Assembly (NCBI GenBank): GCA_016748015.1 | Contig: JAAOMT010000703.1 | Span: 372,001-436,000, forward strand | Direction of reading: 5' to 3' | DNA length: 64,000 nucleotides | Origin: Geosiphon pyriformis uo1 | Lineage: Eukaryota; Fungi; Glomeromycota | Part shown: positions 1,816 through 53,830 of the stretch, piece after piece | Position numbering within the stretch: the stretch's first letter is position 1 | Layout: the number at the start of each line of letters is the position of its first letter | Notes under the pieces: generated by a model | Databases searched by the model: none | What the model was told of the DNA's origin: nothing | The model's input: only the letters and a program-made list of their open reading frames with translations | Made by a program: the position numbers and the translations under genes

Positions 1816-1882
1816 TAACAGTACAACCTCTTAAACCAAACCAATTTAATTATTAGTAATTTCTTCACAAACAAACACAATA

Positions 1883-3190: not shown

Positions 3191-3237
3191 GTATAAATAA
3201 ATGCATCATTCCCAAAACAGAGGTATTTTCAATTGAC

Positions 3238-3894
3238 ATGAACAATTATTTTCTGGATCAAAACATTTAAAACATCTTCTATACTCTTTATAAGTATTGG
3301 ATCAAAAACTATCCAAATGCTACTCTGACCATTGGAAAACAAACCACCATAACTGATAACAGTAGAACACATACTGTTATTAGACCAAAGAAAACCACTA
3401 TCAGAAGAGAAAGAATTGGTAGTAAAATGGATAAATATCTGTTGGAAAGTATAACAACAGCTATACTTCTATTTTCCAACACAATTGGAAAAACACTTCA
3501 AAAAATCTTATCCATAGACAAAAACTTGTCATATGGAAGGCAATTAGAACTTTATGGTCATCTTGGTGAAATCATAGAGAATATGAAACTCATAAAGAAA
3601 ACAACTTCAGAAATACAGTCAGAAATTTTGGACATTATACAGTTAGATGTCTCAAGAGTTTTAACTATTGCTAAAAGAGCCAAAACTCTAATACAAAGAT
3701 TTGGTCTCTTGGATACAAAACTCATTTCACCTCAAGTGTTATATACCTTATCCACAAAAGACTTCAACAAACTAGTTAGTTTTGAGTTAGATAAAACCCT
3801 TCAAATAAATTACTCCATGAATAGCTTGATTTTGCCGGAGCTCAATCTCTTTGGAGAGGATAATGTTATGGTTGAAACTTATACTTCTTATTAA
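3238..3894 (+). CDS. Element A accessory ORF3, unknown function (one internal CAA>TAA)
   Basis: ATG 3238 is in frame with the 155-aa ORF at 3427. TATAAATA at 3192-3199. The frame reads through the PPT into the LTR. Confidence 0.65.
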
Positions 3895-4555
3895 TTATCA
3901 CATGTATTAGCCACTGATGTCATATAAATTAGCCACTTTATTTTTAGAAAGTAATCATTGACCTGATCATTAATCTGATCATTGATCTGACCATTGATCT
4001 GATTATTGACCACTTTTGATAGCTATATAAGTGATAAATTTTTTAGCTATAGAAAAGTATGTAAGAATTGGATGTAAGAATCAAAAGAAATAAAGAAATA
4101 AAATAACAACTTCATCTCAATCCTTCTCTTATCACTAATTTCCCTTTCCCTACTTTCAAGTATCTGAATATCTTAAAGATAAAAGATTACTTGTTGGTTA
4201 TTCTTTACCTTTTTCCTAAAACATGTAATTGCAACATTTGGAGATTATTGAATAAAATGTGACTGAAGAGCACATCTGATACTTGATATTGAATTCTAAG
4301 AGTGCTGACGTAAGGCATAAAATTATACCAAGTGTGATCATTTGTTGACAGTACAGACTATTCCTCTATTTTCAGATTCTCCAGTTACCTTTTAAAAAGT
4401 ATAGCAACTGAGATATTTTATGAGACTGATCTCACACATTGAATTCATACTTATTCAATTCGCTCTTTAAAGTTGAATTCTCTTTGATTATTTCCATTAC
4501 TCTACAATCCTGTTCTTTCTTGCTATCCGTTAGCTTGTTATTTCAACCTGTAACA
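3864..4555 (+). repeat. 3' LTR of element A
   Basis: Starts TGTTATGG right after the PPT and ends CCTGTAACA. Has a 12-bp tandem array 3957-4011, TATATAA ~4025 and AATAAA motifs. Confidence 0.75.
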
Positions 4556-10368: not shown

Positions 10369-10398
10369 AAACATTTCAACCCAAAAATATAACAAAAC

Positions 10399-11775
10399 AT
10401 GAATATACAAAAATACCAACAACTTTAACATTATATAGATACCCAATTGTTCAAAGAGAAATTATCTCAAAAAGAACAAAACAATATAAAACAGCAGTCA
10501 AAACATTTTATCAATTACCAAAACATACTTTACTGAAAAAACAGAAGAAATCTAGATCAACCAACCAGAGTAATTACAGAACCAGAGAAAGAGACAATAT
10601 TGTTCAACATGCATTCAGATCCAACAGCAAGATATTTTCATAAAGAAGCAACAATAGAAAGAACCAAAAAAAGATACTATTGGCTATTAATGTATCCAAA
10701 CATTATCTAATATGTTCAAAATTGTGATGTTTGTTAAAAAAGAAAAAGAACAAAACCAAGTGAACCATTAAGACCAATCAAAGTGGGACAACTATTTGAT
10801 TGCATTGGAATTAACTTAATCGAACTATTAACAATAACCAGCAGAGGCAACAGATATATTGTAGTAGCCATGGATTATTTTACAAAATGGCCAGAAGCAA
10901 AAGCCATTTAAAGAGCAGATGCAAAATCCATTGCCAAATTTGTTTATCAAGATTTAATCTGCCAATACAGATGTCTAAAAGAACTATTATCAGATCAAGG
11001 AACTCACTGTGTGAATAGAACATTGGCAGAATTAAGTCAAAGATTTGGGATAAGAAGACCATTATTATTACCATATCATCCACAAACCAATAGACTAGTT
11101 GAAAGATTCAATAGAACATTGTGTGAAGCAATCACCAAAATCAGTCAAGAAAACCAAGACAAATGAGACTTGATTATATTATCAGTATTATTTGCTTATC
11201 GAACAATAAAACAAGACACTACATAAGCAACACTATTTGAATTAGTATACAATAGAACAGCAACATTATCAGTTGAGATAGAAGTTAAGACATATTCAAC
11301 AGAACTAATAACAAAAAAGAATTTTCAAAGAACATTGTTAAAAAGAACATATGACTTAATGAAGACACTAGAAAACACATGGTAAAAAGCAGCTGATAAC
11401 ATTTAAAAGTCACAAAAAAAACAAAAAAGATAACATGATAACCAATTACTAGATAAACCAGTTGAATTCAAGATTGGAGACAAAGTACTTCTATATCATA
11501 CCAAAGCAGAAAAACAATGGAGTAAAAAATTCGACCCCAAATGGGACAGACTATTTCACATAGAAGAAATTCTTGGAAATGGAGCTTATAAATTAAAATG
11601 AGACAATAAAATCTTAGCCAAAGCAGCACATAGTAATTGACTAAAACCATATCACCAAATAGCATCATCATTTACCAATAACATTCCACAACTGGGAGTA
11701 CAACAAATACTAGTTCAACCAAATGAAATTTCATAAAATCTGGAACCAATTATAATTATTGGACTAAACACATAA
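10399..11775 (+). pseudogene. Element B integrase (separate ORF with own ATG)
   Basis: ATG 10399 (MNIQKYQQL..), HHCC, DDE core, GPF-type C-terminus, no chromodomain. Confidence 0.88.
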
Positions 11776-11835
11776 AATCAAACAATAAAAGAGTATATAA
11801 AGAGACAGTATATGTAACAAAAACAACCAAGAAAA

Positions 11836-12471
11836 ATGGAAATACCAGATCATATTCACATTATAGCTTAACAATTATTCCAGACCTTAAGTCAACAATC
11901 TTTAGACATAAAAGTTATTGTTAACAACCAAACAATTTGCTATCAAAATACCAAAAAAAAGACAAAGAATACATCATATCAGCAGTTACCAAAGAATGAT
12001 AAAAACTGGTTAGATAACATAATAGAAAAAGTAAAGAACACTTTTGGGAAAATACCTATTATGGCACCAACAGAAAAACTTACAAAAAAAAATTGGAAGC
12101 AATGGACAGAACAACTTCCAATATTATACTGTTACTACCAGTTGGTTTGAAAGTTGAATATTCAGGAGTTGTATATCAACAAATCCAAGAGAATATTTAA
12201 CCAAAACATAATATGGCAAATTGAAAAATTTATTGGAAAGAAAACAAACTCAACACTACATGTAAGAACAATTTACTGACTGCATAACATATTTCAGAAC
12301 TATCCAGAAATACTGTTACACTCTGACATGGAAACCATAACCATTAACCAATATAAAAGAATGAATAATGTACAAGTAAAAAAAGTAAAAAATAAAGTTG
12401 AACAGACACTACTAGAAAAAAAAGTATTAGAGCTAATTCAGAATGAAAATTTTGACAAAGCTCAATATTAA
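11836..12471 (+). pseudogene. Element B accessory ORF3 (~211 aa)
   Basis: MEIPDHIH..FDKAQY* in one frame with a few stops. Homologous to ORF3 of C and E. TATATAA at 11794-11800. Confidence 0.75.
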
Positions 12472-12486
12472 AAAAGGAGGAGATAA

Positions 12487-13397
12487 TGTTACTCATAAAA
12501 AGAAAACAGATATAAGAAAATAATAAACCAATAAGTGAATAGTATTTAGCACGTGAGCACATTGCTCAGCAATGTGAAACAATGTCAAAAAAACATGGCA
12601 CATTGCTCAGCAATGTGGAGCAATGTTAGAAAACATGACACATTGCTCAGCAATGTGGAGCAATGTCAGAAATTAGGACACATTGCTCAGCAATATGAGC
12701 ATTGCTCAAGAAATCATAGCACATTGCTTAAAAATGTGAGCAATCTCATAGAACATCAATTATGTATATATAGCAGTAACATTAGAAGTAAAAAAGACAG
12801 AATCTTTTAGTTAGAGACCTCTCAGTTTAGATTTTATCTAGACAACTTTCCAAATCACAATAAATAACTATTTGCTATTTAAGAAACCTACTTCCACTAT
12901 CAACACTTTATGTTAATAGTAATTAATACTTAACCACACTGGAACAATAGCTCTTGATTACGGCTATTAACAGGATACTAACTTACAAATTGCCTTGGCT
13001 TATTTCTTATATTTCTTTATTTTTTTTATTTCTTTTCTTTGATTTTTGTTGTATACTAATTGATTAAAAGATTAAAAGTGCTGAGTTATTGACGTCACAG
13101 ATAGTCTGGTAAAAGACCCAGAAATAAGAGTAGCATTATATATATTATTGGATAGCTTACCAGAAGAACATGACTGTCAGAATAAATCCAACCACCAAGC
13201 TGAAAAAGAAATTGGGAAACAATTTACAAGAAAACTGCAAATAACATTGACAAAGAATCTCTGTTTATTATACAAAGGACTCCAAAAAAAAACTCTTCAA
13301 ATACAAACCTTGAAAGCATCATCCACGCAAATAGCTTTTAAACACCAAGTTATGGGTTTGTTATTTGCCTTAAGACTCCAAGTAATCATCTGTAACA
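12487..13397 (+). repeat. 3' LTR of element B
   Basis: PPT aaaaaggaggaga, then TGTTACT..TGTAACA. R/U5 homologous to the LTRs of C and E. Confidence 0.9.
12558..12738. repeat. Five ~40-bp tandem units, each with palindrome CACATTGCT-C-AGCAATGTG
   Basis: Cores at 12558, 12599, 12639, 12679 and 12720, between a CCAAT box and the TATA box of the LTR. Confidence 0.9.
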
Positions 13398-16300
13398 ATG
13401 ACATCATTGTATCCATCAAAGTTCTTGTGATGGAGCAATCCAGTACCAGGCACTTGTTGGTAACAACTGACTAGTCAAAACAAATGCTGCACTCGACTGA
13501 AACATCCAAGAACTATAGCTGAGTCAGAATGGCCAATACACACAAGTACCTGTCATGTGTGGACACTTCAAACCCATCACTATGCCATCAGTCCCACTTA
13601 TCAAATTCAAAGAAGAAAAAGAGAAACCTATCTGGGAAACTTATTAAGTGTCTTGGACTAATGAAAACTACAATGAGCTACCACCAATACTCTCTTGAGA
13701 TGACAATAAAAAAGGAAAATGAAAGGAAGAACTTACCTGAAATGCTGACCAAGCCTGGGAAACCAACAACAATCAGGACAAAATAACAACTTGGAAGTGG
13801 AAAGAAGATAACAATAAGGAAAAAAGAAAAGAAAAGAAAGAAAGTCCAACACTAAACACCACTTATAGCCCATATACTTACTTTTTAATACCACCATCTA
13901 ATTATCACTGACTGAAACTAATATGTGTAAATTGCAGCAAGAAATTGTTGTTAATGGATGCATGCTGTGGCAATGATGAGGAATACTCCACAGCAACAAA
14001 GTTCTATTGTCACCTATGCATCATAAAACAATTTGAATGTCCAAAAAGGCAAGAAAAATAGGACAACAAACTCTGCTTGACTTGTAGAGAAACACTACTT
14101 GACAAAGAAATATGAAACAACATTCCTGGTTAAGGAGGAATTTGTAATGAATTATGTCAATACACGATTCTAATAAGTGACTGGGTTAAGAAAAAAACAC
14201 CAATAGAAGCCACTTGGAGAAGGGCCATAAGACATCTGGACAGTTGTCTATATGACGATGACAAAATATGGCAAATGGCCATCACCAAGATTAAGGAAGC
14301 ATTATTCAAAGAGATCAGAAAAATCAAGAACAACCCACCAGAACCCATAGAACTCGATTGGGACAAAAAACCAGTCATAAATATCCTGGAACCAGAAAAA
14401 TTTTATGAACACTATCAAACTTTGGCACTTACAAGAGAAGAACAGGAAGAGCATTTAGCACAGTTAAATACTTGACTATGTGACCACTGTTTGATTCCAT
14501 GTGACTTTCAATATTGTAATGAGTGTGATTTCATTTACAATCCACCAATCTGCATGATCTACACAATTCCAAAAGAAGAGGAACCAATTATCAGCTGCAC
14601 ATCAGAATCGGAATCAAATCTCAATCCTGATTCAAACTCTGACAATAATGATAATGAAAACAATGGTTCCAGCTCTGCTCCAAATAGCAACAAAAATTAT
14701 AATGATTCAAACTCCGATTTAAACCCCAAAACATTTATCGCACTTCCTGACCTCACCAAGGAACAAGAACTTAAATGGTTTAGCAATAATGGTAAAGGTA
14801 TCATGCCAAAATGTGTACATGATACTGATACAGGGTTTGATTTGAGATATCCAGGGAGAGATGCCATAAAATTGGAATCCTATTTGCACACCTGCATTGA
14901 TCTCAAAATAGCATTAGAAATTCCAGCAACAACAATAGTTCAATTAGCATCTAAAAGTAGCTTAGCCAAAAAGGGAATCAACATCAGAAGAGAAATAATT
15001 GATACAGAATACATAGGAAATATCATTGCTATGCTACAAAATGACTCAGAAAAAGCATATATTATAGATCTAAATGAAAAGATAGTACAGGCAATATTCC
15101 TACCTCTGGTGAAAATAGCTCAGTTAGTGTTAGTGGAAAACAGGAAAAAATTAGGGATTACTGCTAGAGGAATACAGAGATTTGGATCAATGGGTAGAAT
15201 AGATATATCAGTTAATATGGCAGAGGAAGAGGTTATTGACAAAGGAGAAATTATCTCAACCCATCAATCAATTTTCATTCCACCATATAACCAGTATATG
15301 TTAGCCATAAAAAGAGAAGTAAAGAATCAAGCTCAATTGTTTGAAGCAGAAGCCACCATTTGTGAATCAGAAGAGATTGGACTTACTAATCTCTACATAT
15401 CAGCCAAAAGTCCCAAAAACATTAATATTCCCATCTATAACACAATGAGAAATATTATTGAAATACTAAAGAGAACCATCATTGGATATCTTACTACTAA
15501 AGTTGAGGATCAACCACCAAACCACATTCCAGATTTTTCACAGCTTTGTAGATATGTAGACATCACATTAAAAACTATTTACAAATGAAGTGAATGTTAT
15601 CTGCTCCAACCAGAACAATTGGAACAGATAAACATAGGAAATCTAGACCCACTCCAACAAATACAACTAAAGATATTACTCAGCAATTTCAATAACATTT
15701 TTGTTAGTGAAAATGAATTTGGCCACACCAACATAATCCAGCATCAAATCAAGACCAGAAATACAATGCCAATCAAACAATAAGCATACAGAGTACTACC
15801 TGCCAGCCATGAGATTATTTGTCAAGAAATCAATCAGATGCTTGACAATGGGTTAATTCAACCATTAATGAGCCCATGGTCATCACCAGTGGTACTAGTC
15901 CATAAAAAGAATGGAAAAATCTGCTTTTGTGTGGATTACTAGAAACTGAATGGAATAACAAAAGAAGATAGCTATCCAACACCAAAAATCCAAGAACTGT
16001 TTGACGCTTTTGGTAGAAAGAAATGGTTCTTAACACTAGACTTAAACAGTGGTTACTGATAAGTAGCCATGAATTCAGCTGACAAAGAGAAAATGGCATT
16101 TACTACCAGAGAGAGAAATTTTGAGTTTGAAGTCATGCCATTTGGATTGATAAATGCTCCAGCCACTTTTCAGCAACTTATAGAAATTGTTTATATGGGA
16201 CTACTATAGAAATCTGTAGTCATATACTTAAATAACACCAATGTGTTCTCAAAAACATTTGATGATCATCTGTACCATCTTCAACAAGTGTTTGAAAGGC

Positions 16301-18510
16301 TAAAAAGAGCCGGATTAAAGCTAAATGTAAACAAATGTTTCTTTGGAAAAACTGAACTCAAGTTTTTGGGACATGTGATGAGCAAAGATGGTATTAAAAC
16401 AGATCCAAACAAGATAGAGATTGTTAAGAACTTTTCAGTACTAAATAATCTCACAGAATTAAGAGCATTCTTGGGATTTATTGGATACTACTACCACTTT
16501 ATCAAGAACTTTTCCAAAATAACTTAACCACTACACCAGCTCCAAACAAAGAACACCAAATATAAATAGACAGAAATTCAGCAAGAAGCATTTAATACAT
16601 TAAGAAGAAAGCTGATCCAAGCTCCAATACTAATCTATTCAGATCATAGCAAGCCATTCATAATCACAACTAATGCATCTAGTTAAGTGTTGGGAGCAGT
16701 ATTATCCCAGAAAGAACTAGACAGAAGAGAACATCCAGTAGCTTATGCAAGTAGAAGCTTAAGTCCAGCTGAAAAAAATTATAGAACTCCAGCATTGGAA
16801 CACTTAGCTATCTATTGGGCTGTTATCAAGTGGAAAAAATACTTAAGCCAAAAGTTTGAAATATATATAGATTACAAAGAATTGACTTCAATCCAGAAGT
16901 AAGAATTTGGAGACAATCATTATGTCAGATGGAAAATAGAACTTTTACCATTTAATTATACAGTACATTATAAAAAAAGAAAAGACAATGAAAATACCAA
17001 TGGCTTGTCACGAATGAGACAAATCTAAAAACATTTCAATCCAAATATAACAAAACATAAATATACAAAAATATCAACAACTTTAATATTATATAAATAC
17101 CCAATTGTTCAAAGAGAAATTATCTCAAAAAGAACAAAACAATATAAAACAGCAGTCAAAACATTTTATTAATCATTAAAACATACTTTACCAGAAAAAC
17201 AGAAGAAATCCAGATCAACCAATCAGAGTAATCACAGAACCAGAGAAAGAGACAATATTGTTCAACATGTATTCAGATCCAATAGCAGGACATTTTCATA
17301 AAGAAGCAACAATGAAAAAAACCAAAAAAAAATACTATTGGCCATCAATGTATCCAGATATCATCTAATATGTTCAAAATTGTGATGCTTGTCAAAGAAG
17401 AGAAGGAACAAAACCCAGTGAACCATTAAAACCAATCAAAGTGGAACAACCATTTGATCACATTGGAATTGATTTAGTCAGACCATTAATAATTACAAGC
17501 AGAGGCAACAGATATATTGTAGTAGTCATGGATTATCTCACAAAATGGCCAGAAGCAAAAGCCATTTAAAGAGCAGATGCAGAATCCATTGCCAAATTCA
17601 TTCATCAAGATTTGATCTGTCGACATAGATATTCAAAAGAATTATTATCTGATCAAAGAACTCATTTTGTGAATAGAACATTAGCAGAACTAAGCCAAAG
17701 ATTTGGAATCAAAAAACCATTATTATTATTATACCATCCACAAACAAATAGACTAGTTGAAAGATTTAACAAAACATTGTGTGAAGCTATTGCCAAAATC
17801 AGTCAAAAAAACCAAGATGAATGAGATTCAATCATACCATCAGTACTATTTGCTTACCAGACAATGAAGCAAAACACTACACAAACAACATTATTTGAAT
17901 TAGTATATAGAACAACAACATTACTAGTGGAAATAGAAGTCAAAACATATCCAACAGAACTAATAACAGAAGAGAATTTCCAAAGAACATTGTTAAGAAG
18001 AACATATGACTTAATAGAGACACTAGAAAACACATGATAAAGAGCAGCTGATAACATTTAAAAGTCACAAGAAAAACAAAAAAAAAGACATAATAACCAA
18101 CTACCAAATAAACCAATTGAATTCAAGATTGGGAACAAAGTACTTTTACATTGTACCAAAGCAGAAAAACAATGGAGTGGAAAATTTGACTCCAAATGAG
18201 ATGGACTATTTCACATAGAAGAAATTCTTGGAAATGAAGCTTATAAATTAAGATAAGACAACAAAATCTTAGCCAAAGCAGCACATAGTGATCGACTGAA
18301 ACTATATCACCATATAGTGTTACCATCTACCAGTAATATTCCACAATTAGGAGTACAGAAAATACTAGTACAACCAGATAAGATTCCATGAGATCTGGAA
18401 CCAATCATAATTATTGGACCAAACATGTAAAATGAAACAGTAGAAAGAATATATAAAAACATGGTAAACATGACAAAAGACATCAGAAAAATAGAAATTA
18501 TTAACAACAT

Positions 18511-21500: not shown

Positions 21501-24381
21501 CGACATTGACTAATCAAATGTCCTACGCGTTTGCAAAAATGGCAGGCGCGTGTTTCTGTTCTGAATTCCTGGCGCGACGAGCGATTATTTTGACTGTCGC
21601 TGACTTCCTGGCTGCGTCTTTGGGGTGGTTGGTATGTATTTTTTCTCGGATCCGGGATGAGGTAACTTTCTATTTTCTTAGAAAGTTCCTCCCCTAATCG
21701 CATTATTCTTTTCTCTAATGTTTCTGTCTTATTTTCCTCCATTACCATGTTAACCATTTGACTATGGTTAGCTTCTTTCTCAGCCAATTCAAGAGCTCTG
21801 GCAAGCGTAACGGCTTCTGGTAAGGAATTAGGGTGGGCAGGGNNNNNNNNNNNNNNNNNNNNCGTTCCCTAGTGTTTCCTGTGGATATTGGAAAATTTTC
21901 ATTGGCGTATTGCTCAATTTCTCGATGGATTTTGACAATAGTTGCGGCTATTACTGCTACTTCTTTTGTAGTGTATTGTGATAATTCTCTATACAATCCA
22001 AGTTTTGCGTCATGTAGTTCTTCTTCCTTTCCTATATGATAATTTATTCTGGCGTTGATATAATAAGTGAGGGCAGATTCTGCTGGACAACACCCTTCTG
22101 GTAATCCAAGATCACTTTGATTTTGTGTGTAAATAGCACGGCAGAATTCAAGAACAGTAAGATTAAGGGTTTTTGTCACCACTTTTGTCTTTTCCTTTTT
22201 AGCAATGAATTATTGCTAATTATTATTTCCTTTTTNNNNNNNNNNNNNNNNNNNNGTACTCTTCCTAAAATGCTGCTTTTTAATCCTCTAATAAACTGAT
22301 TTAAAACCTGAGGATCAGTGTAGTATTCTTGTTCAATCGCTTCAATCTGACGGCGAATTCGATTGAATCGAGCAAGATATTGGGTGACAGTTTCACCGGT
22401 ATTTTGCTTGATAGTATTGAATTCGTTCTGTAGTTGGATTATGGCGTTTGGGTCGCTAAAATACTCCAGGAGTGCATTTTTAAATTCGGCGAAGCTCATG
22501 GGTTTTGTTTCCAGGCTTTGATATCACAAGTCAGCTGTGCCTTTCAGGAAGAAAGGTAATGTTTGAATTGCTCTTTGGTCATTCCAGTTATTTGCCTGGA
22601 TGGCTTTTTGTGTTTCTCTGAGCCATGTGTGCACGTCCGTTTCTTCTTCCTCTCCTGAGAAATCTGTTAGTCTTGCAATGTATGGTGTGGTCATTTCGTT
22701 GCCGTTTTCTGCTGGTGGGTTTATTGGTCTAAGAGGAGGTGGGATGATATTTCCTTGAGCATTCCTAAAGGTGGCTTCCCTTATATCCGGTTCTTCCTCT
22801 TGATNNNNNNNNNNNNNNNNNNNNTTCTGGTTCCACATGGGCTGATTTCGGGCCTTGGGACGCCAATTCGGGTTGGCTATCATGGGCTGTTGCTGGTAAG
22901 CTCCTTGATTTTGATACATGGTGGGATATTGGTGTGGTATTGGCGTGTACTGGTTTCTGGGCATTTGGGGTGGCATGTAGTAATTATTTTCGCGTGCTTC
23001 CTGCATCATTCGCGTTCGACATTGACTAATCAAATGTCCTACGCGTTTGCAAAAATGGCAGGCGCGTGTTTCTGTTCTGAATTCCTGGCGCAACGGGCGA
23101 TTATTTTGACTGTCGCTGACTTCCTGGCTGCGTCTTTGGGGTGGTTGGTATGTATTTTTTCTCGGATCCGGGATGAGGTAACTTTCTATTTTCTTAGAAA
23201 GTTCCTCCCCTAATCGCATTATTCTTTTCTCTAATGTTTCTGTCTTATTTTCCTCCATTACCATGTTAACCATTTGACTATGGTTAGCTTCTTTCTCAGC
23301 CAATTCAAGAGCTCTGGCAAGCGTAACGGCTTCTGGTAAGGAATTAGGGTGGGCAGGGCGTACTCTTCCTAAAATGCTGCTTTTTAATCCTCTAATAAAC
23401 TGATTTAAAACCTGAGGATCAGTGTAGTATTCTTGTTCAATCGCTTCAATCTGACGGCGAATTCGATTGAATCGAGCAAGATATTGGGTGACAGTTTCAC
23501 CGGTATTTTGCTTGATAGTATTGAATTCGTTCTGTAGTTNNNNNNNNNNNNNNNNNNNNTGGTGGGTTTATTGGTCTAAGAGGAGGTGGGATGATATTTC
23601 CTTGAGCATTCCTAAAGGTGGCTTCCCTTATATCCGGTTCTTCCTCTTGATCACGTGTTTCTTGGTTTCTGGACTGGCTGCTTGTTCCAGTGACTGGTCT
23701 TGTGATTGTTTTTTCGCTGGTCTCTTTTTCGGATTCTGATTCAGACTCCTCTTCACGGTTTTCAAACTCCGTTCTAAATTTTGGCTGAAAAAGAGGGTTT
23801 TGGAATAGTGATGAATATCCTCCTGTAATTGGTATGTCTCCCCAGTTACGTTGTTTAATTTTATCAATATAACTAAGAGTTCTTGGCATTTGTGGAGTTG
23901 ATGTTGATGATGATGCAGCTCCTAATGGAATTTGTATCTTATTTTCNNNNNNNNNNNNNNNNNNNNATAGTTCAGTTTTAAATATTCTTTTTCATTTCTT
24001 TTTGATTTTAAAGGTTTCTTGGGATATTTAATTTGAAAGTATGATTTAAAGTGGAGTTTGTTAGATAAAATTGGATCTATTGCTTGATAAGTTATGATTT
24101 TTATTACTTGATTGATTCTTTCCCAATATTAAAACTACTGTATATATACATGTTTGTAGTTCTACAAGAAAATACTTTCTTTTTGATATTTCAACCTGGT
24201 GCTTGCTGCTATCACCAGTTGGTGTTGGCTGCTATTGTGAACTGGTGCTTGCCACTATCGCGAGATGGTGTTTGTTACTATGTTAATCATTACCTTTCTA
24301 AGATTATTACTGTGCTATATTATGATTGAATAGTTTGTATTATTTTTATGATTCTTTTTGCTAAATTCTTAAACCGTAACA
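18511..24381 (-). mobile_element. Ty3/Gypsy element D, comparatively young (CpG-rich), collapsed and scrambled assembly with 20-N gaps
   Basis: Termini TGTTACGG..CCGTAACA, TSD ACAT at 18507-18510 and 24382-24385. Minus-strand gag with CHFCKRVGHLISQC, protease LDSGS, Cys-rich region and dUTPase. RT and IN not present in the assembled sequence. Confidence 0.88.
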
Positions 24382-25018
24382 ACATTCACTCATTAGCACA
24401 ACAACTCTTTCAATTGATCCAACAACAAAAAATGGAAATCACAATCAATTAACAAACCATCAAATACACAAACACCAGAAAAAGACCATGGGATAAAGTA
24501 TGGAGGAAAACAGAAAACACTGTTGACAAAATAATGGTAAAAGTAAAACTGGCGATAAAAACACAACTCAAGGTTACCCAATATTAAGAGTTGACTATAG
24601 AAAATTAGAAGTGGTAAATACAACAATTTCCAAGAAACTTTTGTTACTTTTACTTGGGACAACATATGAACATTCAGAATCTATACACAGATAAGACAAA
24701 ACAATTATTTGACACAACAATACTACAACAACTAGAACAATTTGTGGGGAAAAACAATTTAACTACACAAGCAAGAGCCATTTATTGGCTACATACTGGA
24801 TTTTAAGATTGACCAGAAATCTTGCTCAACACTGAAATGGACACTGTTACTGTTAACCAAATGAGAAAATTAACCAACACCCAATTTGAAGAATTACAAA
24901 ACAAGATAACCCAAATAATTCTTGGAAAAGAAGTTCAAGAACTACTCAAAAATGGAGAAATAGAGCTAGGAGATTTGGAAAATCTTAACAGAACTCAATA
25001 TTAAAAAGGAGAGAATAA

Positions 25019-25898
25019 TGTTACTTATAGAATATAGGAAGAATACTAGCATATAAATTAGCCAATCAGAAATAGGCACAGTAAATGTGGAATTCTAGAA
25101 TTCCTCTCAAAGGAATTGCAGAATTCTAAAAATTTCAGAATTCTCATATAAGGAATTGCAAAATTCCAAAATTCCAGAATTCCTCTTAAAGGAATTACAG
25201 GATTCCAGAAATTCCAGGATTTTTGGTGTAAAGAATTAAAGAATTGAGAAATCTCAATTATGTATATATAGCAATAGTGCTAGAAATAGAAAAGACAGAA
25301 TTTTTTAGTTAGAGACTTCCTAGTTTAGATCTAATTAAAACAACCTTTTATTTACAAAATATCAATAAATAATTATTCACTATTTCAATCTACTCTCCAC
25401 TATCAACATAAAGTGTTAATAGTAATTAATACTTAACTACACTAGAACAATAGCTCTTGATCACAGCTATTGATGGAATACTAACTTGCAATTGCTTTTG
25501 TTTATTTCTTTTCTTTTATCTTTTTTTATTTTCTTTGGCATTTCTTTTGGTTAACTAATTGATTAAAAATTAAAAGTGCTAAGTTATTAATATTAAAGAT
25601 AGTCTGGTAAAAGATCCCAAAGGAAGGGTATAAGATTTATATATATTAATGAATAGCTTACCAGAAGAGCATCTTTGCCAGATTACCAGCCACCACGCTG
25701 AGAAAAAAATTTGATGGAATTGCAATTCTGGGAGGCTATGGGAAAGACAACCACTAAATATCTGTCTATTATACAAAGGACTTCACAACAAAATCTTCAG
25801 ATCCATAAATTCTTCAGATACCAATGCCAACAAATCAATTAAGCATCAAATTATGAGTTTGTTATTTGATTTGAAACTCCAAATAATCACCTGTAATA
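25019..25898 (+). repeat. 3' LTR of element C
   Basis: PPT aaaaaggagagaa, TGTTACTT start, CACCTGTAA(T)A end. ~40-bp GGAATTGCAG/GATTCC array at ~25089-25225. Confidence 0.88.
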
Positions 25899-31800: not shown

Positions 31801-32491
31801 CTTTAAAAGTTCAAAAAACTAACTAAAAAAAACAACTCTAAGCATTATTTTAAGACAGTATATCAACTTTATATATTGTTCTAATATTGTTTAGAAGTAT
31901 TATTAACAAACAAAATAAACATACTTATTCTTAATAAAATTAGAAAACTTACTAACAACAAATTTCAAGACTTGCAAAAACAAATAGTTTAAACAAGTAT
32001 ACAGATTTTTATGTTAAATATTAATATTAAAAAATTACACATCAATTTTAATAAAGCTTAATCTTAAGAAAAGAATAATATTATCCAATAGAAATTAACA
32101 AAAATTAAAAATAATAATATTATAATATATTAACCAATTATTAAATAACAATATAAATAGTACAAATTAACAAATAAAATTAAAAAACATAACATGTATA
32201 TGATAGCATATAAAATATGCACAAATATGCCCAATTTAACATAATTATAAACAAATAAGCCAAAAAGCACTTACAGTCAAACAGAAGACCCAATAGTTTA
32301 GCAATTACTTATTAATTAGTTAGAATAAGCATGATTATATATAACTCAAAATATGTATATATAATAGTTTTTTAATTAGAAAAAAAAACAAACAAGAAAA
32401 GAAAATAATAAAAAACAAAAAATCAATTAGACAAAAAAAAAATAAAAAAAAAATAGAAGAATTAGATTATTATCTTAAAAAAGCTAAATAG

Positions 32492-33280
32492 TATTACTTA
32501 TAGAATATAGAAAATATATTATTATTATTAGCAAGTAGATATTAGCCAATCAGAAATAAACGTAGTAAATGTGGAATTCCAAGATTCCTCTCATTAGGAA
32601 TCGCAGGATTTCTGTTGCAAGGAATTGAAGAATTGAAGAATCTCAAATATGTATATATAGCAGTAGTGTTAAAAGCAGAAAGAAAAAAATCAACACCAAA
32701 AATCCTTAGCTTAGTTACCACAATCTTCAAATAAATAATTATTCACTATATCAAATTCATTCTTCACTATCAACATTTCATGTTGATAGTAACTGATACT
32801 TAATCATACTAGAACAATAACTCTTGATCATGGCTATTGATGGGATACTAACTTGCAAATTGCCTTGGCTTATTTTTTATTTTCTCTTTTATTTTTTCTT
32901 TATTTTCTTTGTTGTCTACTAACTTGATTAAAGAATTTACTCTTAAAGAACTTACAGAGGAATAAACTTGCTTAAATTAATACTTACTCTTGGAGGACTT
33001 ATAGAGGAACTGACGTTAGGAAACAGCACTAGTATACACTTATGAAGGATATTGTACTAGGAAAATCATCAATCATCAAGCTGAGTAAGCAATTGATGAA
33101 ACTACAGTTTCAAGAAACTACTAATAAACTGTTACCAGTGAATTTCTGTTCATTATACAAAGAACTCAATTGGAAAACCTTCAGATAAAATACCTTCAGA
33201 TTATCATTGTCACCAATTGCTTTGAGCACCAAGTTATGGGTTTGTTATTCACTTGACACCCCAAAGAATCACCTGTAACA
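32492..33280 (+). repeat. 5' LTR of element E (789 bp)
   Basis: Direct repeat of 41693-42579. The differences I inspected are mostly transitions, plus contraction of the U3 array. Confidence 0.93.
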
Positions 33281-33282
33281 TT

Positions 33283-33299
33283 TGGTGCTTCTTGTGAGG
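33283..33299 (+). promoter_or_regulatory. Primer-binding site TGGTGCTTCTTGTGAGG (elongator tRNA-Met or tRNA-Ile type)
   Basis: TGG lies 2 nt after the LTR end. TGGTGCnnnnnGTGAGG matches the complement of eukaryotic Met-e/Ile(UAU) tRNA 3' ends. The exact tRNA is not determinable here. Confidence 0.75.
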
Positions 33300-33341
33300 T
33301 ATAATCTTACAAAAAACCAGCACCAACAACACCATCCAAAT

Positions 33342-36300
33342 GTGGCAGAATTAGAAATTATAGGAGCCAACCACTTAGGATTCACAAAATCTTTGTTTCA
33401 ATAATACAGCCAACAATTAGGATTAAACAGTAATCACTACTCAGCCAAATCAGCCTTCAACTATTACGTCAATGATAAAATCACAAACTGTTTAGGAAGA
33501 ACTGTTAATATCAAGTCAGCAAGAGAAAATTTCTATACAGAATTATTTCAACACACCAGTTTACCAAGAAATCACAGTTTTATCCCAATCATCAGGGAAA
33601 TCAATCAAACCATTGAAAGATACACGCAACAACAATTTCTCATTACCTATGCAGACAAAGGTAAAGAAAGAATACAAACACCAGCAGCAACACCAAAAGG
33701 AATACAGTTACTTAGTTGGAAGAAACACAGAGTAGAATCACCAACTGCTCCATCATATCACTACACACTTGGAAGCACCATCAACATTTCATTAACAAAC
33801 ATGTTCACATCAAATGTGACATCAACATTTAGAAGATTTCAGTTTCAAAACAAACAATGGAAAAAAGACTTACTAGGACTATATGGCACATATTTTGAAG
33901 GATTTAAATTACCATCAGGAATTTGATTACCAATATCCCAACCAGATTTTGGAGCTGCTACTCCATGAAAATTATCAGAGAAAGAAGAGAAAGGAAGTAA
34001 AGATCAAGGATTCACTTACCAAAACCTAATCTCAGAAAACTCAGAATTTGGAACCCCGAACATTCAAACTCAGCAAAATCAAAACAATCAGAACTCCGAT
34101 TTAATTAATCAGCCAAATATAACCCCAAATATTATCATCAATTACCCACCAATTGATCCAATAGTCGAACCCATTTAGCAGCCATCTCAACAACCAAATC
34201 TGCAAATTCAACAGCTACAAAGACCATCTCAGCAACCACTACTGTAACAACAACTGCTACAGCAGCCACAACAACAACTAAATATAAACCAAATAGTCTA
34301 CACACTTATTGCCAAGTTAGAAAACTTTACTGGTGAAAAAGATGACACTCAAGCATGGATCAATGATGTCTCTAAGGCCATCATAGTAAACAATTGGGAC
34401 AATGCCAGAGCCCTACAGGCAATCTCATACTTTCTTAAAGAAACCACCAATTCTTGGTACTAGAGTTTAGCCACCAGATCACAAACATTCTAACAATTCA
34501 AAACTGTCTTTCTGGAATATTTTAGCAACAATAACAGTATTAATTGTCTAGCCAATACTTTCACCACAATCAAACAAAATAATACTGAAGCAGTCATAAC
34601 ATATCTAAGATGCTTTCATAGAGTCCTATACCAAATTCAAGCCATCAACACCATGTATTTTACAGAACCCCAGATCCTTAACCAGTTTATTCGTGGCCTG
34701 CACAGTAGCATTTTGTAACACGTACACCCATTACACCCAGCCAACCTTCAAGCTGCAGTCACACATGCCAGAGATTTCAAATCAGCTAAGCTAGAAGCCA
34801 ATCACACTCAAGCTGTAAATATAGTAATGAATAGATTATCTGATTTGGATTTCAAATTGAAGCAAATCAGTGATACCATCAATCAAAAAATTGAGGAATA
34901 CTTAGCTAACAAACATCAGTCCATTTATTAATCTCCCCAAAGATGCAGTAATCAGGAAAACTACAATTATTCCCAAAATCAAGTGCATCCCTCAACATTG
35001 GCCAATTAGCAGTGGCAGCCAGAGACACATGTCTGCCACAACTGTGGTAAACAAGGCCATATAAGAGCCAACTGCAATGCTTATAACTGATGATCGAGAA
35101 ATCAACATCAAAATCCCGATCACCAATTCCAAAACCCGAATCAATATCAAAATCAAGAGCAAAATCAAAACACTTACCTGCCAATGACGCAGCAGCCAAT
35201 TTATCAAGCACCAGTATATCAGACCCCAGTTTATCAACCACAGCCACCAGCAATATATCAACCACAACCATCCATAATATATCAAACCCAGCCACAAGTA
35301 ATCTATCAACCTCAAACCATTCAAACACCACCCCAAAACTTACCTCAATACAGAACCCAAAGACTGAGAATGATACAACAAAACTAGAAATTGGCAATGG
35401 TTGTCTACCAACTGATCCCCAGTTTCTCCAACTTACTATTAGGATTGCATTCTCAGAATTTGGGTACTAGTGCCACCCAAAACCTGAATTTCCAGAACTA
35501 TTTAAGTCTTCTGGTTATTTCAGAAGACACCACACCCAGCAATCTGGAAACCAACCCAATCCAAAAACTTACCAGTAACATACTACCAGCAACAGTCACC
35601 GAAAATGAAACATTAGCAGCCATCTTCCCATTTGAGTTTGAGGAAACCACCCCAGTTTCATTATTCAGTAAAGCTGCCTTTGAAGAGAAACCCATTACAG
35701 CAATGGATGTCAAAGTAGATGGTCATTCCATCAAATTAATCCTAAACAGTGGTTCAGCAGACAGCATTATCATGTGACAACTCATGGACCAATTAGGTCA
35801 CTGAGTTGATCGTGCTGTTAGTGCTCGTATAATCACTACTGATGGAGCAACCAAAACTCCAATCGGCGAAATCAATGATTTCCCATTCAAAATCAATGGC
35901 ATTATAATACCCATCAAAGTCTTGGTAATGGAAGCCACACAATACCAGACTCTCATGGGCAACGATTGGTTGTCGAAAACCCATGCTACCCTCAATTGGA
36001 CCACCTAAGAACTACAATTAATCTTTAGTGGTCAGCATACTTGAACACCAGCCACTTGTGGCCACTTTAAGCCAAGCAATGCCCAATCACTTATCGAGTT
36101 CAAGAAAGAAACAAGAAAACCTACCTGGGAAGCCTACCAAGTCTTATGGGCTGACCAAGACCATAACAAGTTGCCACCAGTACCCTCTTGGAACAGCAAC
36201 GTCAAAGGAAAGCAAAAAGAAACAGAACTTACCTGGATCTCTGACCAAGCTTGGGAAACAAAAAATGACTACAACAAACCAGCCAATTGGGAATAGGAAG

Positions 36301-39300
36301 AGGAAGATAATGGAAAGGGAAAAGAGAAAAAAACCACACTGGAAGAGACTATCAGCACCAGCAAAATAACCAGTGGCTGGACCAGTTCATACTCAGTCCA
36401 TAAACCATTACCACAACCGTCATATATTCCATTCAAATGCAAAGACTGTGAAAAAAAACTTTCTTCCATGAGAGCATAGATTGCACCAGATAAAGACTAC
36501 TGGATGTGAACCCATTATTATTATAAGCCATGCCATAGAGAATGCTATGGCTATCTAAAGAAACAGGGCAAGTGGGACAATAAACCATGTCTCATTTGTG
36601 GTAAACAACTGCTCAATGAAGGAATGTGAAATGACATTCCTGATTGAAGAGGAATGTGTAACACTTTGTGCCAATACACAATCCTCATTAGTGACTGGGT
36701 GAGTTGTAGTACCCCAATTACAGCAGCATGGCACTGAACACTCAATCGTTTAGACAGTTACCCCCATGATAAAAAGAAGATCTGGCAAATGGCCAATGCC
36801 AAAGTAGAAGATGCTACACCTAGTGAAATACTGGAAATTAAGAACAATCCTCCAGAACTGGTCAATATCATTCGTATTCCTAACCCAGATGCTTTCATGG
36901 ACAAAGAAACAGATCCAGAAGACTTCCACAAATACTACCAAAATTTGGCACCTACAAGAGAAGAACAGAAGCAGTATTTAGAACAACTAAACACCTGATT
37001 ATGTGACCACTGTTTAATTCCCTGTGACTTCCAATATTGTAATGAGTGTGACTTCATTTACAATTCATTACCACACATGATCTACACAATCTTAGAGAAA
37101 ATTGAACCAATCAGCAGCTGTGCATCCGAATCGGAATCACCATTCAATCCCAATTCAAACTCTAATAATGATGACGATGAAAACACCAGTTTCAGCTCTG
37201 TTCAAATTGGTGATAACAATGACAACAATTCCAACTCAGATTCAAACTCTGACCCAAAATATGAACAATACATTGCACTGCCAGACCTCTCCAAAGAACA
37301 GGAGTTAAAATGGTATAGTAACAATAATGAAAGTATTATACCAAAATGCATGCATAATACTGATGCTGAGTTTGATCTGAGGTATCTAAGAAAAGATGCC
37401 ATCAAATTGGAACCACATTTGCACACTTACATTGATCTGAAAGTAGCATTAGAAATTCCAGCAACAACAATGGTTCAACTAGCATCTAGGAGTAGTTTAG
37501 CAAAAAGAGAGATTAATATAAGTGGAGGAATAATTGACGCAGGATATGTAGAAAATATTATTGTTATGCTACAAAATAACTCTGAAAAGACCTATATCAT
37601 AGAGCCAAACAAAAAAATAACACAGACAATATTCCTGTCTCTGGTAAAAATAGTGCAGTTAGTATCAGTGGGAAATAGGAAGAAATTAGGGATAACAGTA
37701 AGAGAAATACAGGGATTTGGATCAACAAGTAGAATAGATGTACCAGTCAATATGACAGAAGAAAAAATTGTTGACCAAGGAGAAATTATTTCAATGGGTC
37801 AAGCAATCTTTATTCCATCATATAGTCAGTACATGGTAGGAATAAAGCAGAAAGTAAAAGAACAGAATTAGATTTTTGAAGCAGAACCAAATCTTTGTGA
37901 ATTAGGAGAGATTGGACTCATCAATTTCTATATACCAGCCAAAGATTACAGCCACATCAAAATTCCCATCTATAATAACACAGGAAATGTCATAGTAATA
38001 CCAGCTGGAACTACCATTGGATACTTAAGCACTAAAATTGAGGATCAACTACCAAGCACCATTCCAGACTTTCCATAGCTTTGTGAATATGTTAATATCA
38101 CATTACAAACAATATATGGACAAAGCGAATGTTATTTGCTCCAACCAGAGCAATTAGAACAAATGAACATGAGAAACTTAGACTCACTTTAACATATGCA
38201 GCTTAAGATATTGCTTAATAATTTCAATGACATCTTTGCCAGCGAAAACAAATTTGGCAGAACTGACATCATCCAACACCAGATTAAAACTGGAGATACA
38301 ATGCTGATCAAACAAAGAGCATACAGAGTGCCACCAGCCAGCCATGAGATCATCTGTCAAGAAATCAATTGAATGCTTGACAACGGGCTAATTTAGCCAT
38401 CAATGAATTCATGGTTGTCACCAGTAGTACTCATCTGTAAGAAGAATGGAAAAATCTGATTTTGTGTAGATTACAAAAAACTCAATAGTGTAACTCGTGG
38501 AGACAGCTATCCAACTCCATAGATATAAGAACTATTCAATGCTTTTGGTAGAAACAAATGGTTCTCAATGTTAAACTTAGATAGTAGTTACTGACAAGTA
38601 GCCATGGATCCAGCTGACAAAAAAAAAACAGCATTTACCACAAGAGAAGAGAATTTTGAATTTGAAGTAATGCCATTCAGCTTAACTAATGCCCAGCCAC
38701 TTTCTAACAGCTAATGAAAATTATTTATACTGACTTATTGTGGAAATCAGTAGTTGTATACTTGGACAACACCAATGTATTTGATAATCATCTTCATCAT
38801 CTTCAACAAGTGTTCGAAAGGCTAAGAAAAGCAAAACTAAAGTTAAATGCAACAAAGTGCTTCTTCGACAAGACAGAACTAAAATTCTTGGGACACATAG
38901 TCAGCAAAGATGGCATCAAAATAGATCCAGAGAAAATAAAGATAGTAAAGAACTTTCCAGTACCAATTAATGTAACTAAATTGAAATCATTCTTGGAATT
39001 CACAAGCTATTATCGATGCTTTATAAAGAACTTTTCAAAGATAGCTCAACTGCTCAATAATTTGCAAACCAAGAATACAAAATATAAATGGACAGAAAGT
39101 CAACAAGAAGCTTTTGATATTCTGAAAAAAAAGCTCATTTAAGCTCCAGTACTGATCTACTCAGATTACAACAAACCATTCATTATTATCACCAATGTAT
39201 CAGACCAAGCATTGGGAGCAGTACTATCTCAGAAGGGACCAGACGGCAGAGAACATCCAGTAGCATATGCCAGCCGAGGTTTAACACCAGCCGAAAAGAA

Positions 39301-39550
39301 CTATAGAACACCAGAACTAGAACATTTAGCAATCTATTAGGCAGTTATGAAGTGGAATGAATACTTGAGCCAAAAGTTTGATATATACACAGATCATAAA
39401 GGGTTAACATCACTTCAAAAGCAAGAATTTGATAATAGCCACCAATCCAGATGGAAAATGGCACTCTTACAATATACTTATACTATACACTATAAGAAAG
39501 GAAAAGACAACAGAAATGCTAATGGTTTGTCGCGAATGAGACAAATCTAA
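33342..39550 (+). pseudogene. Element E Gag-PR-Cys-rich-dUTPase-RT-RNaseH
   Basis: Zinc knuckle CHNCGKQGHIRANC ~35033, ILNSGSA, GGIIDAGY/GFGST, YLDN. RNase H ends GLSRMRQI*. Confidence 0.9.
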
Positions 39551-39612
39551 GAACATTTTAACCCAAAAATATAACAAAACCAGAACAATACCAACGAAAA
39601 ATATAACAAAAG

Positions 39613-40995
39613 ATAAACATACAAAAATATCAACAACTTCAACATTATATAAACACTTAATAATTAAAGGAAAATTTATCTCAAACAGAACAAAAAAGTA
39701 TCAAACAACAATCACAATATTTTATTACTCACCAAAATATACTTTATCGGAAAAATAGAAGAGATCTAGATCAACCAACCAGAGTAATTACAGAACCAGA
39801 AAAAGAGACAATATTATTCAACATGCACTCAAATCCAACAGCAGGACACTTTCACAAAGAAGCAACCATAGAAAAAACCCGAAAAAGATATTATTGGCCA
39901 TCAATGTATCCAGATATCATCCAATATGTTCAAAATTGTGATGCTTGTCAGCAAAGAGGAGGAACAAGACCCAGTAAACCATTAAGACCAATTAAAGTGA
40001 GACAACTATTCAACCATATTAGAATTGATTTAGTTAGACCATTAACAATCACCAGCAAAGGAAACAGATACATAGCAGTAGCCATAGACTATCTCACTAA
40101 ATGGCCAGAGATGAAAGCAATTCAAAAAGCAGATGCAGAATCTGTTGCTGAATTCATTTATCAGGATTTGATTTGTCGACATGAATGTTTAAAAGAATTA
40201 TTATCAGACCAAGGAACGTATTTTGTGAACAGAACATTAACAGAATTGAGCCAAAGATTCAGAATTAAGAGACCATTATTATCACCATACCATCCACAAA
40301 CCAATGAATTAGTCAAAAAATTCAATAAAACATTGTGTGAAGCAATAGCTAAGCTCAGCCAAGAAAACCAGAACGATTGAGATTTGTTGATACCATTAAT
40401 CCTATATGCTTATCAGACAATAAAGCAAGATACTACACAAGCAACACCATTTAAATTAATATATGGTAGAACAGCAACACTACCAGTGGAAATAGAAGTC
40501 AACACATACCCAACCAAACCAATAACAGAAGAGAATTTCAAAAACACATTGTTGAGAAGAACATATAACTTAATAGAAACATTAGAAAACAAATGACAGA
40601 AAGCAGCTGATAACATACAAAGGTCACAAGAGAAACAAAAAAAAAGACATGATAACCAACTACCAGATAAACCAGTTGAACTCACAATTGGAAACAAAGT
40701 ACTACTACATCATACCAAAACAGAAAAACAATGAAGTGGAAAATTTAATCCCAAATGGGATGGACTATTTCACATAGAAGAAATTTTAAGAAATGGAGCT
40801 TACAAATTAAGATTGAATAACAAAATCTTGACCAAAGCAGCACATGGAAATTAACTGAAACCATACCACCATATAGTATCATCATCCACTAGTAATATTC
40901 CACAACTGGGAGTACAGAGAATACTAGTCCAACCAGATGAGATTCCACAAGATCTGGAACCAATCATCATCATTGATAACAACACGTCCAATTGA
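39613..40995 (+). pseudogene. Element E integrase
   Basis: HSNPTAGHF..YYWP..CDAC, IDLV, LSDQG, YHPQTN, WDGLF. Confidence 0.9.
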
Positions 40996-41049
40996 TCGAC
41001 AGAAAAAATATATAAAGACATGGTTGATACAACAGAAAAACGCAGAAAA

Positions 41050-41679
41050 ATGGAAATTACCAACAACATCTATTTATTAGCACAACAAATCTTTCAATTA
41101 ATCCAACACCAGGAGATAGAAATTACAATCAATTAACAAACCATTTGATACAAAAGTACTGCAAAAATACCACAACACAAAGTACAGAGAAAACTCGAAA
41201 ATGTTGTTGACAAAATCATGACCAAGGTAAAATTGGCTATGAAAGAACAACAAATAGTCGGATTACACCAAGAACTTACCAGAGAAACTTGGACTTGGTG
41301 GACACAACAATTTCCAAAAAACTATTGTCATTTTCACTTGGGACAACATGTAAATATTCAGAATTTGTATACTGACAAAACAAAATGGTTATTCGACACA
41401 ACAATACTGAGACAACTGAAACAATTTGTGAGAAAAAACAATCTAACCACACAAGCTCAAGCTATTTACTGGCTATATATGGGATTTCAAAACTGACCAG
41501 AAATTTTACTCAATACAGCAATGAATACAATTACAAGTAATCAATTAGAAAAAATGACCAACACCCAATTTGAAGAACTACAAACTCAAATAACACAAAT
41601 AATACTTGAAAAAGAAGTTCAAGAAATAATTCAAGAGGGGTAATTAAAAGAGTTAGATTTCGACAGAGCTCAATATTAA
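41050..41679 (+). pseudogene. Element E accessory ORF3 (209 aa)
   Basis: MEITNNIY..DFDRAQY*, single frame with four stops. TATATAAA at 41009-41016. Confidence 0.78.
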
Positions 41680-41692
41680 AAGGAGGAAATAA

Positions 41693-42579
41693 TGTTACTC
41701 ATAGAATATAGGAAGTATATTATTATTATTAGCAAGTAGATATTAGCCAATCAGAAATAGATATATAGTAAATGTAGAATTCTAGGATTCCTTTCAGAGA
41801 AATTGCAGAATTCCAGGAATTTCAGGATTCTCCGGTGAGAAATCGCAGGATTCCAGAATTCCAGGATTTTTCTCATTAGGAATTGCAGGATTCCAAGAAT
41901 TTCAGGATTCCTGTTGCAAGAAATTGAAAAATTGAAGAATCTCAAATATGTATATATAGCAGTAGTGTTAGAAGCAGAAAAAAAAAAATCAACACCAAGA
42001 ATCTTTAGCTTAGTTACTACAATCCTTAAATAAATAATTATTCATTATATCAAATTCATTTTTCACTATCAATACTTCATGTTGATAGTAACTGATACTT
42101 AACCATACTGAAACAATAGCTCTTGATCATGGCTATTAATAGAATACTAACTTGCAAATTGCCTTGGCTTATTTTTTATTTTCTCTTTTATTTTTATTTT
42201 ATTTATTTTGTTGTCTACTAACTTGATTAAAAAATTTACTCTTGAAAGACTTATGGAGGAATAAACTTGCTTAAAACAATATTTACTTTTGGAGGACTTA
42301 TGGAGGAACTGACATCAGGAAACAGCACTGATATACACTTATGGAAGATATTGTACCAGAAGAATTATCAACCATTAAGCTAAGCAAGCAATTGACAAAA
42401 CTATGGTTTCAGGAAACTACTGATAAACTGTTACCAGTGAATTTCTGTCCATTATACAAAGAACTCAATTGGAAAACCTTCAAATAAAATACCTTCAGAT
42501 TATCATCATCACCAATTGCTTTGAGCACCAAGTTATGGGTTTGTTATTCACTCAACACCCCAAAGAATCACCTGTAACA
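41693..42579 (+). repeat. 3' LTR of element E (887 bp)
   Basis: Follows PPT aaaaggaggaaa; TGTTACTC..CCTGTAACA. Confidence 0.93.
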
Positions 42580-51560: not shown

Positions 51561-51599
51561 TTAGACATAAAAAAATAATAATAAACAATTTTTAATTTA

Positions 51600-53773: not shown

Positions 53774-53777
<4 letters not shown>

Positions 53778-53828
<51 letters not shown>
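53778..53828. repeat. (AAT)n microsatellite (others ~55960, 56979, 58285, 59192-59270, 60678-60781)
   Basis: Directly visible. Confidence 0.95.

Positions 53829-53830
<2 letters not shown>

Follow-up and report, generated by a model that had tools for sequence, protein, structure and literature searches.

Element E (positions 32492-42579) lies in a stretch of 64,000 nucleotides from Geosiphon pyriformis uo1 (contig JAAOMT010000703.1, positions 372,001 to 436,000 of the forward strand), hereafter the window. E is a full-length, decayed long terminal repeat (LTR) retrotransposon carrying 44 nonsense codons and one frameshift and, judged by its sequence, is an inactive, mutation-riddled copy of the Ty3/Gypsy type. 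It belongs to a group from Glomeromycota and soil metagenomes in which integrase (IN) is an open reading frame (ORF) of its own, with its own ATG. E exposes a real and probably undescribed Ty3/Gypsy variant. The explanation that we favor as a whole, at somewhat better than an even chance, is a split-integrase Ty3/Gypsy group in which IN would be made by translational restart and a third ORF (ORF3) from an RNA begun at an internal TATA box.

Since the copies in the window are too decayed, the proof of this layout comes from intact relatives. A protein search with IN was restricted to 253 to 807 amino acids (aa), and the best 120 of 457 relatives were examined. These proteins are 390 to 453 aa long and consist of IN domains alone; 117 of the 120 start with Met, and 64 begin exactly 78 residues N-terminal to the H2C2 histidine, matching the position of the ATG in copy B of the window and of the ATA in E. 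Most end about 16 residues past the SH3-like motif, at an EPxIxI motif, and the end of the E integrase matches this one. Metagenome contigs were searched with an IN profile, and the best 80 of at least 568 confirmed stretches were taken. Among the loci that span both the end of RNase H (RH) and the start of IN, all 14 of the in-group were split, with the Pol stop falling after RNase H or after a tail and IN starting at its own ATG. The gaps were -8, -1, 27, 30, 37, 62, 63, 74, 75, 89, 110, 163, 365, and 727 nt, and IN lay in frames 0, 1, and 2 relative to RH in 4, 4, and 6 loci. RH and IN were fused in 22 out-group loci, and 7 decayed or unclear loci were given neither label.

The phylogenies, which contain fetched relatives only and no curated GyDB or REXdb references, gave a similar division. 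In the IN tree (87 rows), a single branch divides split from fused loci, with a Shimodaira-Hasegawa-like approximate likelihood ratio test (SH-aLRT) support of 96. In the tree of reverse transcriptase (RT) and RH (133 rows), a 36-row branch (SH-aLRT, 93) that includes the window copies A, B, C, and E is made up of 33 of the 34 split rows and three Rhizophagus clarus gene models. Of 120 polyproteins listed, 17 end without IN, and 16 of these are in the split branch. Run X1 was also inspected over positions 39250-41690, where only two indels of at least 5% were present among the variants listed, one in each spacer. No relative was found in viral contigs with one IN query, and a profile gave three weak partial matches there.

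A sequence-only reading of this DNA had proposed the separate integrase ORF from the window copies. That proposal is borne out by the intact relatives, but the window alone is weak evidence for it, because the IN of B is in the RH frame, ORF3 is in the IN frame in B, C, and E, and decay also makes shared stops. RNase H ends in TAA in all three of these copies, and the RH-IN spacer measures 30 nt in B, 28 nt in C, and 62 nt in E; the integrase start codon is ATG in B and ATA in E. The stops might have arisen by chance decay in a standard element with gag and pol fused, making the layout an artefact. The 44 stops of E would suit such an origin, as would the stop positions common to B, C, and E (3 of 36 in pol; 1 of 21 in IN). 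However, the split is also present in copy A and in intact relatives with open ORFs. The intact relatives refute this explanation for the group, and we give it hardly any credence.

ORF3 homologues of 119 to 290 aa lie 3' of IN in 12 loci, with a partial one in locus L014, and the ORF usually reaches or enters the polypurine tract (PPT). Every one of the 86 protein matches of the E ORF3 is a gene model under the name Geosiphon pyriformis. In a profile comparison, the Geosiphon and metagenome groups match each other (E value, 8e-5; probability, 61%), and two non-Geosiphon proteins from a wide search bridge them; the ORF3 of copy A matches the family weakly (probability, 13%; independent E value [iE], 2.3). 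Purifying selection on ORF3 had been set as a check by the sequence-only reading, and it was found: the ratio of nonsynonymous to synonymous substitution rates (dN/dS) of ORF3 between E and the fragment at 24378 was 0.17 (0.08-0.26), similar to the 0.22 of IN. Structural models are all helical, with predicted local distance difference test scores of 93.8 and 79.0. No Pfam family was common to at least 2 of the 17 members, a sequence search of solved structures gave no relative, and Foldseek against PDB and BFVD returned nothing at an E value of 0.001. The best VIA matches were weak, with Z scores of 5.1 (root mean square deviation [rmsd], 3.2; 69 aligned) and 3.6 (rmsd, 2.8; 63 aligned), and the absence of a convincing VIA match does not demonstrate a new fold. 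Two Atlas leads, a closterovirus coat protein (0.94) and a RegA-like repressor (0.92), shared fewer than 170 features and were set aside as unconfirmed. Overall, ORF3 is a conserved helical family under purifying selection. Because it is missing between IN and the PPT in seven loci, all of one subclade, ORF3 is judged to be accessory and dispensable for the split integrase. Across the 17 members, isoelectric points (pI) run from 5.3 to 9.7 and exceed 8 in 11, and the hydropathy maximum is 1.29, with no membrane segment. A dispensable, probably nucleic-acid-binding accessory factor would be our tentative description, held at a little under an even chance.

The position of a TATA box before ORF3 was then compared across the group. 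TATAWA begins 39 to 52 nt 5' of the ORF3 ATG in 9 of 14 lineages (the 12 loci, E, and A), when 0.5 to 0.9 lineages are expected at -60 to -35 from local background or shuffles; in the same window before IN, it occurs in 1 of 24. Around the IN stop, it is present in 9 of 12 ORF3-bearing, 3 of 18 fused, and 1 of 7 ORF3-less loci (the last in a window of -100 to +40). The position of the TATA box 5' of ORF3 is conserved beyond chance, confirming the internal TATA that had been read from the window. Transcription of ORF3 from this internal promoter, giving an RNA with a 5' leader of about 10 to 25 nt that ends in the 3' LTR, is a step of the proposed expression that we hold to be fairly likely.

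In the remaining steps of the proposed expression, the genomic RNA driven by the LTR would be translated into one Gag-PR-Cys-dUTPase-RT-RH protein (PR, protease), and IN would arise by termination-reinitiation or internal initiation on the same RNA, to which we assign about an even chance. Restart is favored because no TATA box and no conserved acceptor precede IN and because the gaps before it overlap or are short in several relatives; those of -8, -1, 27, 30, and 37 nt fit translational coupling. Such a route would make IN scarce relative to the one-frame polyprotein, and a free integrase would need a noncovalent entry to the particle. The main rival is an IN translated from its own RNA, which would be either spliced from the LTR transcript or transcribed from a promoter that lacks a TATA box and lies in RH or the spacer, with no translational coupling. 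Long spacers in some relatives (163, 365, and 727 nt) suit this alternative, and splicing is typical for third ORFs in LTR elements (PMC5408684; here and below, papers are cited for their accessible parts). However, just 6 of 21 loci have a YAG 12 nt or less from the IN ATG, the single TATAWA among 24 loci argues against a TATA-driven RNA, and the -1 and -8 junctions have overlapping start and stop codons. The R. clarus gene models do place a splice at the RH-IN junction, although it would cut off the RNase H end. We regard an own RNA for IN as possible, ranging from doubtful to not far below even. Of the earlier claim of three separately expressed genes, the own IN ORF, the conserved ORF3, and the position of the TATA box before ORF3 are supported, whereas separate transcription of all three stays hypothetical. 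A stronger form, in which a widespread, undescribed fungal group expresses an LTR-driven polyprotein, an integrase guided by stop-restart or RNA structure, and, from the internal TATA box, a regulator or anti-silencing protein with a new fold, seems rather unlikely to us; if true, gene control in the style of complex retroviruses arose independently in fungi.

Several observations weigh against the restart and internal-promoter explanation or the layout beneath it. A careful RT tree (49 rows) retained one change, but the branch that has the split group on one side was weakly supported (76/15). The three R. clarus gene models fuse RH to IN, minus the RH end and the first IN residues; read from the gene models alone, these fusions may be predicted introns spanning the stop. 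Given its length limit of 253 to 807 aa, the IN search cannot show that fused forms are absent. The three longest gaps are long for reinitiation, and a termination upstream ribosome-binding site-like motif is not conserved at the RH-IN junctions. For the TATA box, the window was set after inspection of the data, 4 of the 9 matches share bases with the IN stop codon, L014, a held-out locus, was negative, and 5 of the 14 lineages lack it. In E, a lone in-frame TGA, possibly itself decay, divides IN from ORF3. Nucleic-acid binding by ORF3 is a guess, since the pI spans such a wide range, and the expression steps given here are inferred from sequence alone.

In a sister subclade, a conserved, covarying RNA hairpin lies 3 to 15 nt 5' of the integrase ATG (L001-L007, L011, L013, and L028). 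It is built of a 5-bp outer stem, an 11-nt purine-rich bulge, a 6-bp inner stem, and an 8-nt loop, CANNGUGA. Changes on both sides were observed in 10 of 11 pairs, and 92.7% of cells are paired. Of 81 sources, 10 contained the hairpin, and two of those 10 had not been part of the training set. The window, and hence E, has no copy; Rfam gave no match at an E value of 5, and viral contigs gave 0 pattern matches. The hairpin may be an initiation element, a packaging signal, or a nuclease block. The same subclade (L005; P0356, P0365-P0369, P0373-P0375, P0380, P0385, P0388, P0390, and P0393) has a polyprotein tail of 75 to 400 aa past RNase H, which in most cases contains an acidic stretch and the His/Cys motif CDxENHHxHxYCxxC; the two tails scanned had no Pfam match. 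Elsewhere, L025 (2945-5367) carries a split-integrase element without the family ORF3, followed by two other ORFs of 197 and 612 aa that matched no Pfam family above the cutoff. Finally, a Calcarisporiella thermophila polyprotein (P0409) stops 8 residues past RNase H, and the careful tree places it with the split group; the split layout may extend outside Glomeromycota, with P0409 known as a protein alone.

The frame relation between IN and ORF3 bears on a further alternative, in which ORF3 of the Geosiphon E subfamily is a C-terminal integrase extension (a targeting domain) and the intervening stop is decay. In B, C, and E, the two are in frame and always 63 nt apart, and the stop differs (TGA in E and TAA in B and C), as such an extension might leave them. 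However, IN relatives end at the EPxIxI motif noted above, 10 of the 12 relatives, and A as well, have ORF3 in a frame other than that of IN, and B retains the TATA box in a different codon phase. Within the family itself, a 1-nt deletion in the IN-ORF3 spacer reaches 7.6% of depth in run X1, and gene model P0077 crosses the spacer in the ORF3 frame, implying another IN frame by back-translation. We consider the extension very unlikely.

The sequence-only reading had also suggested an autoregulatory circuit, in which ORF3, expressed from the internal promoter as a Tas-like transactivator, would bind the U3 array and raise LTR transcription. The conserved internal TATA box and the presence of U3 arrays are in line with it, as is an ORF3 that is soluble, helical, and in 11 of 17 members basic (pI above 8). 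This suggestion found no support. Arrays also occur in all 6 of the relatives that lack ORF3 and extend far enough downstream, the whole ORF3-less subclade lacks the supposed activator, the array units of B and E differ, and most of the array is gone from the E 5' LTR. Near the internal TATA box, the best 12-mer match to the E array carries 3 mismatches, and 22 of 25 control windows did better, so no shared motif emerged, nor did a transactivator-like fold match. The circuit appears improbable, though less so than the extension.

Compared with Ty3 and Tf1 (Metaviridae), E shares LTRs with TG...CA ends, a primer-binding site (PBS), a PPT, a target duplication, and the PR-RT-RH-IN order, and Ty3-G Gag-Pol is the best solved relative of the integrase profile (E value, 9e-51). 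An integrase excised from the Pol polyprotein is the typical Ty3/Tf1 layout rather than a formal superfamily criterion. Here, in contrast, integrase stands outside Pol with its own ATG, a third ORF follows, and in the E family Gag and Pol form one frame with a Cys-rich region and dUTPase. Unlike in chromoviruses, Pfam detected no chromodomain in three IN copies, and IN relatives end shortly past the SH3-like part. Ginger-type DNA transposons carry a Gypsy-like integrase alone between inverted repeats, without RT; this identity was ruled out, as the IN of E and of 14 loci comes after RT-RH within LTRs. A dUTPase between PR and RT is known in fungal and rotifer Gypsy elements (PMC2864245, PMC6431247), and extra ORF3s are known in LTR elements (PMC5408684). 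PosPlaTy3-5, Tmt1, and the bdelloid Juno, Vesta, and TelKA share these two traits, but in the accessible accounts their integrase is inside pol and their ORF3s are of env, GDSL, or DEDDy type, whereas the E family has no chromodomain and an ORF3 unrelated by Pfam.

The foamy-virus-like logic once proposed for these copies survives as an analogy for one feature, the internal promoter. In foamy viruses, an internal promoter near the 3' end drives accessory genes, and Tas binds sites at this promoter and in U3 (PMC3185757). The integrase profiles are related (prototype foamy virus IN; E value, 1e-32), and the candidate promoter has a similar place, here predicted from TATA alone. However, there is neither room nor an ORF for env, Gag to RH is one frame with IN apart whereas foamy viruses translate Pol, with IN in it, from a spliced mRNA, no motif is common to the internal promoter and U3, and ORF3 matches no known transactivator. 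A closer precedent is Oikopleura Tor3b/Tor4b, in which an internal promoter, located in pol or in the intergenic space, drives a third ORF, as mapped by 5' rapid amplification of cDNA ends (PMC4402516). That ORF encodes a membrane Env, whereas ORF3 has no membrane segment, its promoter is predicted, and the integrase is split off.

The features of E and of the other copies are collected in Table 1. The LTR-to-LTR plan that the sequence-only reading attributed to A, B, C, and E is complete in E, the only one of A, B, C, and E with two LTRs; no long ORF is open in E, B lacks its 5' LTR, C is cut at both ends, and A runs off the window. The polyprotein order it had given was recovered: Pfam on copy B (stops read as X) yielded Gag-CCHC-PR-(Cys-rich)-dUTPase-RT-RH, and E has the same motifs. 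Families matched in B were RVT_1, RT_RNaseH, and Retrotrans_gag, with Ty3_capsid in relatives. The Cys-rich region had no Pfam match; it and the dUTPase are additions of the Geosiphon family and do not extend to the group as a whole. Between dUTPase and RT (37800-38270), a stretch resembles by eye a second, degenerate dUTPase, without Pfam support. The E integrase comprises an N-terminal extension, H2C2, the DDE core (rve), and an SH3-like part (weak SH3_Tf2), and ends past the EPxIxI motif. Stops number 34 in the polyprotein frame (31+3, counted from 33963), 6 in IN, and 4 in ORF3, with a 1-nt frameshift in RT near 38695. A ciliate genetic code failed to open these frames, so the stops are decay. 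The LTR pair differs by 74 transitions and 4 transversions over 789 aligned columns (Kimura two-parameter distance, 0.11), with the U3 array mostly deleted from the 5' LTR. The differences are spread across CT, CA, and CC contexts, and decay in the window is a strong C-to-T change that is not CpG restricted. No tRNA was present in the window to match the PBS of E.

Table 1. Positions of element E and of related copies in the 64,000-nucleotide window
Feature	Position	Strand	Remarks
E, target-site duplication ATAG	left 32488..32491, right 42580-42583		4 bp; flank comparison
E, 5' LTR	32492..33280	+	789 nt; TA...CA ends, first G decayed
E, TATA-like TATATATAG within 5' LTR	near 32652	+	
E, PBS	33283..33299	+	starts TGG
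E, decayed single-frame polyprotein	33291..39550	+	stop TAA 39548-39550
E, Gag capsid	from 34308	+	after N-terminal region
E, CCHC	35034-35075	+	
E, protease	near 35733	+	
E, Cys-rich region	36438-37052	+	
E, dUTPase	about 37300-37730	+	
E, RT	from about 38277	+	
E, RNase H	to 39535	+	
E, RH-IN spacer	39551..39612	+	carries short duplication
E, integrase ORF	39613..40995	+	6 internal stops; start codon decayed
E, TATATAAA, candidate internal promoter	41009..41016	+	41 nt 5' of ORF3 ATG
E, ORF3	41050..41679	+	209 codons; 4 internal stops
E, PPT	41678..41689	+	
E, 3' LTR	41693..42579	+	887 nt; TG...CA
E, U3 tandem array in 3' LTR	41776..41912	+	40-bp unit x3.4
Copy B	4544..13397	+	E family, 71% identical; gag to ORF3 in one frame, stop-broken; no 5' LTR
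Copy B, TATA	11794	+	-42 from ORF3; U3 array unit unlike that of E
Copy C	13396..18510	+	E family; both ends cut (protease to ORF3 start); TATA 18450/18452
Copy A	1..4560	+	related family of same group; runs off window; RH stop, IN in different frame
Copy A, TATA	3192	+	-46
Copy A, divergent ORF3	3238-3894	+	out of frame with IN; extends into LTR
ORF3-PPT-LTR fragment, E subfamily	24378..25896	+	used for dN/dS

Elsewhere in the window, positions 18884-23966 (minus strand) hold almost stop-free gag, protease, Cys-rich, and dUTPase pieces of a younger sister family, with eight 20-N gaps between the pieces and repeated segments that are 99 to 100% identical; this region is a collapsed assembly of a recent high-copy element. 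Relics of 9 to 23% GC at 26000-32400 and 42600-54000 retain IN and ORF3 traces (31471-32007, iE 1e-5; 44884-45267, iE 0.02). The last part (54000-64000), of about 30% GC, has AAT microsatellites and short ORFs and no relation to the elements.

LTR elements make up 41.2% of the G. pyriformis genome (PMC11952901), and in run X1, 26,063 contigs matched a 2.4-kb stretch of the E family, against 1 and 0 in runs X2 and X3. In their accessible parts, papers on transposable elements (TEs) of mycorrhizal fungi give family counts and not the split layout (PMC11952901; bioRxiv 2021.03.30.436303), and the TE library or supplements of PMC11952901 may contain the E family. A literature search, with Repbase, GyDB, REXdb, and subscription papers outside its reach, yielded no paper in which elements of this kind have integrase as a stand-alone ORF. 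Recognition of the layout corrects the annotation of mycorrhizal genomes, because pieces of the family appear in annotations as hypothetical genes of the host (86 gene models for ORF3) and, in Rhizophagus, integrases of the group are annotated as free-standing DDE enzymes. It also brings out a protein family without a fold match, ORF3, and an RNA without an Rfam match, the hairpin. Integrase normally enters the particle as part of Gag-Pol, and a group with a free integrase must dose and package it in some other way.

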